Of a DNA stretch of 50,867 bases, positions 85 to 50,051 are shown one piece after another. Source of the DNA: Eledone cirrhosa (taxonomy: Eukaryota); NCBI GenBank assembly GCA_964016885.1, contig CAXHJY010001356.1, positions 1-50,867 on the forward strand, read 5' to 3'. Each line of letters opens with the position of its first letter. The first letter of the stretch is position 1. Position numbers and translations under genes: made by a program. A model generated the notes under the pieces. The model saw nothing but the letters and a program-made list of their open reading frames with translations, was not told where the DNA came from and ran no database searches.

Positions 85-355
85 AGAAACGAACTCATAT
101 ACTAAGCATATCTGACGACCTTTCGATTACAGAATCAGGTTCGATCTATAATAGATCTTGCCTCGAGCTGATCGATAGTGAAACATATGTAATATGTTAT
201 TAAATATATGATGCATCACTGAATCCTTGGTCCTTGGACCTCTCAAAATTCGTTTGATATTTTAATTGGATTTTCACCGCGATACTGGATACCAACCCGG
301 AGTACACCTGGACTTCCACCAGGAAATCTTTCGTATCATTGAAATGTTTGTGCTT

Positions 356-358
<3 letters not shown>
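85..358 (+). mobile_element. Putative non-autonomous Penelope-like/retrozyme-type element carrying the hammerhead
   Basis: Hammerhead followed by ~160 bp of non-coding tail that ends at an (AT)n tract (358-387). Minimal hammerheads are an established hallmark of Penelope-like element termini. Boundaries are inferred. Confidence 0.45.
105..198 (+). ncRNA. Type I hammerhead ribozyme (minimal stem III, long stem II)
   Basis: Stem I AGCATAT(105-111)/ATATGTT(192-198); core CTGACGA 112-118; stem II 119-179 is an imperfect hairpin (CT.TCGAT/ATCGA.AG, CAG/CTG, AGG/CCT, GATCTAT/ATAGATC); GAAA 180-183; palindromic stem III ACATATGT 183-190; cleavage triplet GTA 189-191. The stem II closing pair C119/T179 is a mismatch. 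Confidence 0.8.
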
Positions 359-389
<31 letters not shown>

Positions 390-4117: not shown

Positions 4118-4756
4118 GTATGTATGTATATATACATTATAAATGCATTATGTGTATATACATTATAAATGCATTATGTATATATACATTATATATACAT
4201 TATATATATAGAGAGAGAGAGAGGGAGAGGGAGAGAGAGAGAGAAAGAGAGAGAGTGAGTATGTATATATATGTTGCCAATATTTTATTCTCATGTCTCC
4301 ATGTAGCCAACCTGTTGTCCTTATGTCTCCATGTAGCCAGACTTATATCCTCACGTGACTCCTATTGTATTTCGTCAATTTACTTTTAAACCTCCCTCAA
4401 CAGTCATAAAAAACAGTCACAAACATTAGTGTAGAAAACTCTCATCAACTTCTTCTCTCCTAAGTAATCAGTAGTGCTGGTGTGTACAAACTTCAACATC
4501 ATTCTAATAAATATTGCCTGTTCAAGCTAATCAAAGTATGTATACATTTTTGGGGGACACCATGTATATAGAACGATAAAAAAAAAAGCTCGCAGAATAA
4601 CAAAATCAGGGAAAGAAATGTTCTGTAGATCAATCAATTGAATAATAAAATAGTATACTAAATTACTATCGATTTCTATAACGTTGATTAGAAAAAAAAA
4701 ATGTTTTTCCTCAAACCAGAAATATCACTAAATGTGGACTAAAACTTCGTAAAAGT

Positions 4757-5040
4757 TCTTCTTCTTCTTTCTTTTTCTTTTTCTTTTTCTTTTTCTTTTT
4801 CTTTTTCTTTTTCTTTTTCTTTTTCTTTTTCTTCTTCTTCTTAGGGTCGTGGGGACAAAGTCCTCAAACATTCCTTCCAGCAGGTCCTGTCAATAGCAAC
4901 CGTCCATAAACTGATCCGGCTGCTGGATCCCCCAAGCGTGACCAGCCAAGCTCATGGATGTTATCCAACCATCTTGCTCGGGGTCTACCCCTGGGTCTCC
5001 TGCCGGTAAAATCTGTCCATAGTATCGTAGCTGTGATCTT
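4757..5040 (-). mobile_element. 5'-truncated RTE-clade (Expander/Rex3-like) LINE 3' end with (GAA)/(GAAAAA)n tail
   Basis: Minus strand translates KITATILWTDFTGRRPRGRPRARWLDNIHELGWSRLG, then after a frameshift TVAIDRTCWKECLRTLSPRP* (stop at 4841-4843). This matches the RTE C-terminal GRRPRGRP..RW.D motif. A simple-repeat tail (4757-4840) follows directly. Confidence 0.85.
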
Positions 5041-5116
5041 TCAATACTGAGAAGTAGCAGCTCTACCTGGAGTGACTCTCTTATCTTCCGAGCTACACAC
5101 TCTATCGAGTAACGTT

Positions 5117-5266
5117 AGGCAAGATCGGTAGAGCGTCAAACACCATGCTTTGCATCATAATTCAAATCCGCCGAAGTTAACTTTGCCTTTCATCCTTACG
5201 GGGTCGATAAAATAAAGTACCAGTAATGCACTGGGTAATTGCTGGCCTTGTGCCAAAAGTAGAAAT
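5117..5266 (+). mobile_element. tRNA-type cephalopod SINE, internally deleted, with target-site duplication
   Basis: Contains TTCAAATCC..CTTTGCCTTTCATCCTTACGGGGTCGATAAAATAAAGTACCAG..GCTGGCCTTGTGCCAAAA, near-identical to 23078-23171 and 29567-29728. Flanked by TCTATCGAGTAACGTT (5101-5116) and TCTATCAAGTAACATT (5267-5282). Confidence 0.85.
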
Positions 5267-5328
5267 TCTATCAAGTAACATTTCTTCATTAAAATTATTT
5301 ATATTAATATAAAAGAACCTCAACAATT

Positions 5329-5850
5329 CTGGATTAAATGATGTCAACATAGAATATATTAAAGATGGCTGGATTAAATGATGTCAACATAGAATATATT
5401 AAAGATGGCTGGATTAAATGATGTCAACATAGAATATATTAAAGATGGCTGGATTAAATGATGTCAACATAGAATATATTAAAGATGGCTGGATTAAATG
5501 ATGTCAACATAGAATATATTAAAGATGGCTGGATTAAATGATGTCAACATAGAATATATTAAAGATGGCTGGATTAAATGATGTCAACATAGAATATATT
5601 AAAGATGGCTGGATTAAATGATGTCAACATAGAATATATTAAAGATGGCTGGATTAAATGATGTCAACATAGAATATATTAAAGATGGCTGGATTAAATG
5701 ATGTCAACATAGAATATATTAAAGATGGCTGGATTAAATGATGTCAACATAGAATATATTAAAGATGGCTGGATTAAATGATGTCAACATAGAATATATT
5801 AAAGATGGCTGGATTAAATGATGTCAACATAGAATATATTAAAGATGGCT
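5329..5850. repeat. Perfect 40-bp tandem repeat, 13 copies
   Basis: Unit CTGGATTAAATGATGTCAACATAGAATATATTAAAGATGG repeated with no visible variation. Confidence 0.97.
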
Positions 5851-48499: not shown

Positions 48500-49751
48500 T
48501 TGACTGATTTACTGTGGATGGTCATTGCTGGTTGATGGATGGCTGAGTGTGGATGTTGGATGGTGTCTGGTGGAGTGTGGACGGTGGTGTGGTGTTCGAT
48601 GGTCGCCATATTCAATAACCAATGAAACCAAGTCAACAACTCTACCATTTACTGGCAATCCGTGTTGTTGTTGTTGTTGTTGTTGTTTTGGTCCTTTAAT
48701 CTTTACAGCTAAGATTACATTCTACACTTCTCTCTCTCTCTCCCTCATTCACTCACTCACTCTCCACCTCTCTCTCTTCCTCTCTATCCCTCTCTCTCTC
48801 TCTCTATCCCCCTCCCCCCTCTCTCTCTATCTCTCTCTCACTCACTCACTTCACTCACTCACTCACTCTTTATTTCACTCCCTCTCTCTCCCATTCTCTC
48901 TCTCTCCCTCTCTGTCTCTGTCGCTCTCTCCCTCTACCTCTCTCTCTCCCTCCTCCTCTCCTCCACAGCCCCTCCTCCTCTCCTCCACAGCCCCTCCTCC
49001 TCTTTCTATTATTTCAGCTATAAATATGTTTTCTTCTTCATTTACTTTATTAATTAGGAGAAAGAAAGAAGGAAAGAAAGAAAGAAGGAAAGAAAGAATT
49101 AATAACAAAGTCGTTATGACGAAAATATAAATCTTGTTTTTGATGTTGGTCTGTTTCTTGTCCAGTGGGGGGGGCATTAGTGGTGGTGGTGGTGTTGTGG
49201 TGGTGGTGGTGGTGGTGGTTGGTAGCGTTATTAGTATGGTTGTTGTTGTTATTGGTGGTGGTGGTGGTGGTGGTGGAGGAGGTGTTCCAACAAACATATT
49301 GTGGTTTAATGAAATCCGTTTCAAAAGACTTCTACAGTCAATATTGGATATAACAAATAACATCAGTAGCAGCAGCAACAACAACAACAGCAACAACATC
49401 AACAGCTTCAACAACAATTCTCTCCCTCTCGTCTCTCTCTCTCTCTCTCTTGCTTCTTCTCTCTATCTCTATCTCTCTCTCCAAGACTGGGCACTTGACC
49501 TTCATATTCACCCCCCTCCATGACTGGCTTCACCCCACCCCTCTCTCTCCCTCTCTCTCCTTCTTTCTCTCTCTCTCTCATGTATTATAACACAGTGAAT
49601 GTCCTTCCTATCACCAACCACTTTACACAATGAAGTCGATACATTTTACCATGGCACTCGCTCTAGGGAGGTTGTCATGTCTTTGACACAACCTAAGAGT
49701 CCTTTCAACTCTTCTTACCTCATGATTTCTTCAGCTGGATGTCCTTCCCAA

Positions 49752-50051
49752 CACCACCCAAAGGCAGATGTAGATCATCTTTACCTTCCCAAAACTCAAA
49801 AAGGCTTAGACTTGGCCGAGTTTGAACTGTCTTACAACTCGCTGAAAAACACGAGAGGAGTAAGAAGCTTCATTCGATCTTAAAAGACAGCAAAACTTTT
49901 GCTACTGACTTCACGACTTAAAATCCACACTAGAGAGACCAGGAGTATTGTGGCAACTCTTGTTGCAAAACAAGTAAATTTAATGGCTAAGAAAACGGAG
50001 CATGAGCAATTAACATCAAAGTGGAAGCAGAAACCTCTGCATCCCAAATAT
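49752..50051 (+). mobile_element. Decayed R4/Dong-like non-LTR retrotransposon ORF fragment
   Basis: Across frameshifts: HHPKADVDHLYLPKTQKGLDL / EKHERSKKLHSILKDS / AKQVNLMAKKTEHEQLTSKWKQKPLHPKY. These match the HHPKADV.RLYLPR..GGRGL and W..KPLHG.Y motifs downstream of RT in R4/Dong elements. Confidence 0.82.

Follow-up and report, generated by a model that had tools for sequence, protein, structure and literature searches.

A type I hammerhead motif with a 61-nt stem II in a probable Penelope-like element remnant of Eledone cirrhosa, and a reading frame that may run through it

At the beginning of a 50,867-nt stretch of Eledone cirrhosa DNA (the whole stretch analyzed, hereafter the window), positions 105–198 carry what looks like a hammerhead ribozyme whose core halves are 61 nt apart. 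This locus raises the question of whether the motif could be a genuine ribozyme, what kind of element carries it, and what the long intervening sequence represents. A sequence-only reading had described a type I hammerhead in an ORF-less, ribozyme-bearing retroelement. Direct reading of the sequence located every component of the proposed hammerhead at its place:

105..111, plus strand: hammerhead stem I, 5′ strand (sequence reading; structural descriptor)
112..118, plus strand: catalytic core C3–A9, CUGACGA, with N7 at 116
119..179, plus strand: stem II, 61 nt, with a pyrimidine/U mismatch at the base followed by a 22-bp interrupted hairpin
180..191, plus strand: G12-A13-A14, stem III palindrome (183–190) and cleavage nucleotide A191 (sequence; descriptor)
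192..198, plus strand: hammerhead stem I, 3′ strand (sequence reading; structural descriptor)

The core nucleotides C3, U4, G5, A6, N7, G8, and A9, then G12, A13, and A14, the A15.1-U16.1 pair, and H17 are all present in order, and stem I is the open helix. GAAA occupies 180–183 and A191 corresponds to H17. Stem I (105–111 with 192–198) comprises 7 bp, two G-U pairs among them, and the 8-nt palindrome of stem III (183–190) forms one A-U and one C-G pair around a 4-nt loop. At the base of stem II, C119 and U179 are unpaired; the closing pair G10.1-C11.1 is absent, with C or U at 119 facing U179. The arm has more than twice its normal length. It had been claimed to fold as one long imperfect hairpin, and this was borne out: the 61 nt form 22 interrupted base pairs at −18.8 kcal/mol (z = −2.9), a stability matched by 16 of 2,000 dinucleotide shuffles. 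The whole 94-nt motif reaches a z of −1.56 only, with 16/200 shuffles as stable.

A structural descriptor search allowing a long stem II (up to 100 nt), which the sequence-only reading had asked for, recovered 105–198 as a strict match; the only other strict match in the whole window was at 41329–41394 on the minus strand. When the 16,731 unmasked bases were shuffled 1,500 times, a stem I of at least 7 bp appeared in 12 shuffles, and in one together with a palindromic stem III. The Rfam hammerhead models, suggested in the same place, left 105–198 unmatched at the gathering score, at which the whole window had no match to any Rfam family; among weaker matches (E up to 10), none of the 15 in 1–600 and neither of the two in 85–230 was a hammerhead. 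A match in Rfam is a database criterion and no defining biochemical feature of hammerheads. Looser patterns consisting of the core letters and a long gap matched 59 viral and 7 metagenome loci, none of which has a stem I of at least 5 bp (0–4 bp in all), and we judged them to be chance matches rather than relatives. The exact family motif was found in no metagenome contig. Three of the metagenome loci (L062, L065, and L066) represent one common repeat in which the core pattern was matched and stem I is lacking; two of them, L065 and L066, additionally match 201–229 of the window (86% over 29 nt, E = 1.5e-4), probably by chance. On sequence and predicted fold, the motif at 105–198 is best described as a genuine type I hammerhead.

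Modeling indicated that all three helices are possible around the core (stem I with 7 bp, stem II with 22, and a palindromic stem III with 2). In the computed minimum fold of the monomer the hammerhead is nevertheless not formed: the 5′ strand of stem I has shifted to pair with 185–190, and this inactive fold has −21.6 vs. −19.2 kcal/mol for the active one, a difference of 2.4. In the computed monomer ensemble this strand pairs with 185–190 with a probability of 0.73 and with 192–198 with 0.07. Because the same six bases occur twice after GAAA, it would pair mostly with the first of them. For two RNAs, the double hammerhead, in which the palindromes join as an 8-bp stem III and the stem I strands are swapped, was computed at −50.2 kcal/mol vs. 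−43.2 for two monomers, and the best dimer fold is an inactive one at −51.2, 1 kcal/mol below it. Cleavage by the predicted hammerhead is expected 3′ of A191 and chiefly in the dimer.

The sequence around the motif was then compared with contigs from four public runs, none of them recorded as RNA, of one study on the same organism (X1–X4, of which X1–X3 represent one sample, so that pieces repeat). At 80% likeness, 2,068, 2,099, and 2,059 contigs of X1–X3 and 87 of X4 aligned to 1–357, part of them belonging to a different repeat at 1–48; with thousands of contigs fitting this region, the proposed multicopy nature of the retroelement was supported. The family is an abundant repeat, roughly 5–15% diverged, and contigs identical to the window have a depth of only 5–10. 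In X1–X3 the summed depth, which does not equal copy number, is 12–34 at 73–84, about 4,600–5,600 at 109–120, 92,000–113,000 at 181–192, 34–77 at 217–228, and 15,000–20,000 at 313–324; it can be read only as a family of hundreds to many thousands. Depth rises to thousands from 97 on, with pieces starting at 86–98, and its steady fall through the arm could reflect either reverse transcriptase stalling in the hairpin or subfamily divergence. Behind 345, loose ends indicate that the family continues where the window copy ends. These data delimit the following features:

86..357, plus strand: 5′-truncated 3′ end (pseudo-LTR region) of a multicopy, very probably Penelope-like element (PLE), from depth, piece starts, and loose ends
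358..387, no strand: (TA)15 microsatellite adjoining the 3′ end of the window copy, the likely insertion target

The long arm is kept throughout the family. Among the 32 pieces listed (6,509 more lie outside the listing), 24 span 112–191, 18 of these without gaps and 6 with, and 21 of the 24 carry at least six differences; thus the arm was inherited and is no one-off insertion, in agreement with the earlier suggestion that it could be a family-specific module. Opposite-strand joints were found at 89/154, 89/155, and 95/130, and one contig carries two copies head to head, although contigs through repeats can be chimeric. Both observations fit 5′-truncated PLE copies with an adjacent inverted copy, and inverted 5′-truncated copies are described for PLEs (PMC8557442). 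One 861-nt contig of X4 (depth 25.9, the shallowest in that run having 4–7) contains 785 nt upstream of the motif, which hints at a longer element body. Other contigs, identical to the window or one letter off over 97–206, have different flanks, one of them being an inverted second copy; they may represent a very recent sister insertion, the other haplotype, or a chimeric contig path. No second copy of the element is present within the 50,867-nt window.

Variants were taken from 40 of 89 rows, the lowest listed share being 11%; those in the other rows are presumably rarer. Among the listed rows, 105–198 has 21 substitutions at 17 sites, of which 16 fall among the 61 sites of stem II and one is N7 (116), the sole varying position of the catalytic core; none affects the 32 other sites of the core, stem I, and stem III (Fisher's P = 0.0009, a contrast somewhat biased by alignment ends and by seeding on the conserved block). 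The deepest-covered block of the family, 180–191, has no listed variant. At the stem II base, U119 accounts for about 30% of aligned depth and U179 has no listed variant. The sequence-only reading had raised the possibility that the C119/U179 mismatch weakens this copy. Hydra-clade hammerheads often have U/U here (14 of 26 rows by eye count in File S2 of PMC8557442), and U10.1-U11.1 variants are described as active, natural, and tolerated (PMC3088659). Considering the share of U119 together with these two observations, the mismatch is a style of the family rather than decay, and a weakening of this copy is not supported.

Covariation of the helices was not evident: variation is as frequent at paired as at unpaired sites (11/44 vs. 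5/17, counted without linked copies), and 5 of 12 single changes in pairs leave the pairing intact with no change in the partner. The changes 148 A>G and 152 U>C occur at matching shares (9–13%) in X1–X3, with no linkage between them visible; likewise, the common changes at 158/160, 148/152, and 140/160 would strengthen the hairpin if linked, linkage again not being visible.

A different pattern was detected when the same variation was viewed in codons. The following features are involved:

87..203, plus strand: ORF through the whole ribozyme, with TAA at 201–203; 38 of its codons lie within the element, and it is a candidate for the terminal part of the element ORF
204..357, plus strand: non-coding 3′ part of the element, from indels and absence of single-frame bias

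In the window copy this frame is open from 60 to 200, its stop lying 10 nt after the cut site. Third codon positions account for 12 of the 17 variable sites, 14 of the 21 substitutions are synonymous, and none creates a stop. Wholly synonymous sites number 11 of 17 vs. 4.8 expected (base-matched permutation, P = 0.0004); the frame was noticed post hoc, the P-value is about 0.003 after six-frame correction, and the rows are partial and without linkage data. The bias toward third positions persists among paired sites only (6/11 vs. 5/33, P = 0.016) and without CpG sites (8/17 vs. 4/36, P = 0.011). Of the third positions, 11 of 21 vary in stem II, as against none of the 9 that fall in the core, stem I, or stem III (P = 0.011), as would be expected under a joint constraint on protein and ribozyme. 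In the antisense frame that shares the same third positions, 12 of 21 substitutions are synonymous; this frame is interrupted by a stop in the majority allele, and both of its ends are closed. No indels are listed in 63–205; insertions of 1–3 nt appear at 206–208 and a 13-nt deletion at 252, and variation in 204–357 shows no single-frame bias. The plus frame has no start codon inside 86–200. These patterns make it reasonably likely that the plus frame overlaps the ribozyme as coding sequence, and they suggest that the 61-nt arm doubles as such. The description of the element as ORF-less is at odds with the codon-periodic variation and with the 861-nt contig that extends 785 nt upstream.

To date the putative peptide has no recognizable relative in the collections searched. 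Two word-index searches gave no candidates at longer or near lengths, a HMMER search of 1.84 billion proteins gave no true relative (the 11 matches were summed weak repeats of unrelated repeat proteins), and Atlas gave no usable match, with low recognition of the query. The peptide was also considered as the end of a GIY-YIG endonuclease and rejected for its E-to-N spacing of 6, which is too short; in the PLE endonuclease alignment of PMC8557442 (Fig. S2, by eye) this spacing is about 10–16. At its cut-offs, Pfam matched neither the peptide nor any of 16 chosen frames of the window; no reverse transcriptase (RT) or GIY-YIG domain was seen, and the truncated window copy has no PLE-type RT. A minus-strand frame at 203–358 was rejected as a PLE protein: it has no Pfam family, its two candidates gave no match, and it shows no third-position bias.

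Taken together, we consider it highly probable that the locus is a PLE remnant with a real hammerhead, and the family itself very probably belongs to the PLEs. Its hammerhead lies near the element 3′ end, with 167 nt between the cut site and the (TA)n junction, and is apparently in sense orientation, judging from the plus frame and the 5′ truncation. The window copy shows Hydra-style traits ((TA)n insertion, a Y/U base of stem II, and a palindromic stem III), which amount to a resemblance to the Hydra clade in sequence features; (TA)n targets are common to Hydra, Naiad, and Neptune PLEs and so are not diagnostic. Thus, of the proposal of an ORF-less ribozyme-bearing retroelement, the Penelope-type dimer hammerhead and the multicopy nature stood, and the lack of an ORF did not, given the codon-periodic variation. 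The reading that we prefer, with moderate confidence as a whole, is that an abundant PLE family, closest in type to Hydra, left a 5′-truncated 3′ end at (TA)n, whose hammerhead arm is of dual use.

A possible way of working can be outlined. The element 3′ end would insert at (TA)n, and reverse transcription would usually stop early, leaving 5′-truncated copies. Tandem or abundant element RNAs would be cut 3′ of A191 via dimer hammerheads. In source elements, the ribozyme would lie within roughly the final 30 codons of the reading frame, and stem II would be long since it is also coding sequence, shaped into a hairpin. With cleavage at 191, the message would lose its stop codon and the three codons before it, and tandem transcripts would be processed as well. 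As shown for the Poseidon element PAc (PMC11167929), uncut RNA, reverse-transcribed from a point downstream, would serve as the template for insertion, since sequence on either side of 191 is retained in the copies. That the whole hammerhead sits in a PLE's last codons, and that dimer self-cleavage removes the stop and couples RNA processing to protein shut-off, is a tentative proposal that may well prove wrong.

Several other explanations were weighed. The strongest of them, which is still unlikely, sees in the family a mini-element or retrozyme of about 120–270 nt, derived from a PLE, non-autonomous and without an ORF, with the arm as a pure RNA module and the codon pattern as chance or relic. 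Many pieces are confined to the stretch from 86–98 to 203–207, depth drops by a factor of about 100 or more at 217–228, two such units stand head to head in one contig, the plus-frame peptide lacks a protein relative, and non-autonomous PLE derivatives with type I hammerheads are known (PMC7229834 and bioRxiv 10.64898/2026.07.22.740005). Variation that is codon-periodic and synonymous argues against such a unit, as do the contig of depth 25.9 with 785 nt upstream and the lack of a tandem second unit beside the window copy. Moreover, loose ends behind 207 continue like the window, which implies that part of the depth drop is local divergence.

A more remote alternative would leave the frame coding and place it elsewhere, as a first coding exon or short upstream ORF, so that the ribozyme overlaps the gene start of the next unit, with an intron from GT 189–190 or with the stop at 201–203. 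The ORF of an anole Poseidon element starts at stem II (PMC11167929), PLEs keep introns, one of which in Drosophila virilis ends at helix I (PMC4209133), 189–194 resembles a weak splice donor that would follow a complete codon, and pyrimidines abound where the family continues behind 345 (the last two by eye). The absence of a start codon inside 86–200 and the weakness of the donor match make us regard this as quite doubtful.

Much less probable still is that the hairpin is mainly a double-stranded ADAR or Dicer substrate for editing or small-RNA control of the element, a role that the sequence-only reading had also envisaged. RNA editing is heavy in cephalopods, and 61 nt with 22 pairs have the size of a pre-miRNA-like hairpin; however, the helices are 2–6 bp long and broken by loops, the longest unbroken one being 6 bp, and A>G is not in excess among the fixed differences (9 of 74 places in X1, vs. 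18 for C>T and 13 for G>A), and the suggestion found no support.

Equally improbable is that no ribozyme exists and that the conserved coding end of a repeat just happens to contain hammerhead-like letters, a view for which one could cite the silence of Rfam, the like variation of paired and unpaired sites with 5 of 12 changes keeping pairing by themselves, and the 59 viral loci matched by core letters alone, and against which stand the single shuffle in 1,500 that joined a 7-bp stem I to a palindrome, the synonymous third positions that are frozen in the core and vary in stem II, the variation of N7 as the one free core position, and a second such motif within the same window.

This second motif (41329–41394, minus strand) is a type I hammerhead candidate of another family, with an 8-bp stem I and a CUGAUGA core. 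Its stem II has 31 nt (−7.2 kcal/mol, 134 of 1,000 shuffles being as stable), (TA)n follows about 45 nt later, and no Rfam hammerhead matched it at E up to 10. Its core halves are in the same codon phase as those of 105–198, with a stop five codons past the GAA codon and another stop upstream. The window is rich in microsatellites (197 tandem-repeat rows), with 34% GC in the first 2 kb. A purine-rich high-copy repeat with units of about 35–48 nt occupies 1–87, directly upstream of the element, and recurs at 30045–30699 and 41640–41720, once lying about 250 nt from the second hammerhead. At 26278–27054, a partial tandem (174 + 28 nt repeated at a spacing of 581–582, 97–100% identical) adjoins a (TA)n run; it has no strict hammerhead and no Rfam or Pfam match, and its pseudo-LTR-like layout is possibly that of another PLE-type element. 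Frames at 4867–5114 and 49599–49880, which have no Pfam match, are presumably relics of RTE-type LINEs, judging from their motifs, and 5158–5298, 22962–23174, 29450–29852 (frames at 29450–29689 and 29607–29852), and 31202–31539 are what we take to be copies of a SINE-like repeat of octopus genomes.

In vitro, PLE insertion can do without hammerheads, which by themselves are slow. A cut inside a reading frame, if true, would permit a direct test of a regulatory role by comparing stop-less and intact messages, and third positions, if coding, would separate the protein constraint from the RNA constraint. Searches in which stem II is capped at about 26 nt undercount animal hammerheads, because two motifs beyond this cap (61 and 31 nt) occur in one 51-kb window. 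If the coding signal fails, what is left is an ordinary PLE hammerhead with a long arm.

Full-text searches of the open literature turned up neither a hammerhead that spans the final codons of an ORF in a PLE nor this repeat family; they took in passages of PMC7229834, PMC13282606, PMC13725137, the Naiad preprint, and bioRxiv 10.64898/2026.07.22.740005. The metazoan hammerheads in PLE pseudo-LTRs (Cervera and de la Pena 2014, PMC4209133) have the same dimer design, mostly in solo 5′-truncated copies, and resemble the present family further in opposite-strand pairs, an extra nucleotide after A9, and variable families. They differ in having G10.1-C11.1, which is absent from the window copy, and in size: a "larger than usual" helix II there means 7–8 bp, whereas 22 bp are present here, and none of the 56 motifs in their Fig. 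S3 exceeds about 24 nt between A9 and G12, vs. 61. The descriptor used there (stem of 3–7 bp, loop of 3–10 nt) could not find the window motif. Animal non-LTR retrozymes (PMC7229834; bioRxiv 10.64898/2026.07.22.740005) are likewise multicopy repeats related to PLEs that carry a type I hammerhead whose stem III is weak. They are, however, defined by a tandem arrangement in which every unit spans a few hundred bases and has its own hammerhead, whereas the window copy is single and has a coding signal; none of the 15 joints listed among 20 goes back over the motif, and tandems are possible at other loci. For Xenopus retrozymes, only one of nine predicted dimers cut in vitro (bioRxiv 10.64898/2026.07.22.740005).

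An overlap of hammerhead and ORF is found in PAc, a Poseidon element of Anolis carolinensis, whose 3′ end is also downstream of the ribozyme, whose uncut RNA likewise is the insertion template, and whose targets are AT-rich (PMC11167929). The PAc hammerhead depends on the protein of its element, and insertion can do without the hammerhead. The arrangement is different in that the PAc ORF begins at stem II and runs on, whereas here the frame enters upstream, covers the ribozyme, and stops 10 nt past the cut.

The closest likeness is to Hydra-clade PLEs (Craig et al. 2021, PMC8557442), whose hammerheads are likewise of type I, with a palindromic stem III, near the 3′ end (about 90–430 nt from it), in elements with (TA)n targets; one of these families is from Octopus bimaculoides. 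On the other hand, their stem II has about 10–26 nt vs. 61 here and their palindrome mostly 9–10 nt vs. 8, the motif of Hydra-1_Obim differs in sequence from that of the window, and the hammerhead of Hydra-2_Amil comes well after the stop codon, whereas ours is inside the frame. No published octopus Naiad or Hydra consensus was found to be this family, a weak miss as long sequences are broken in the PMC8557442 supplement; two family motifs and the peptide end are absent from the available text of that supplement. The same source provides cases of longer spacing: PLE-X1_sMoe and PLE-X1_sTam of Selaginella, flagged as non-canonical, have about 53 and 48 nt between core halves, and eight Naiad "HHR_half_core" cases, two from cephalopods, have core halves 35–50 nt apart. 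The two PLE-X1 elements are from plants and lack an endonuclease, the Naiad motifs were left there untested as half cores, and coding was not reported in the part of PMC8557442 available. Long arms thus have partial precedent, PLE hammerheads with arms of about 50 nt being already in print. Lunse et al. in RNA Biology reportedly describe dimer-cleaving PLE hammerheads, which may show longer arms. Long-arm hammerheads of the coding kind proposed here could include the half-core cases of cephalopod PLEs.
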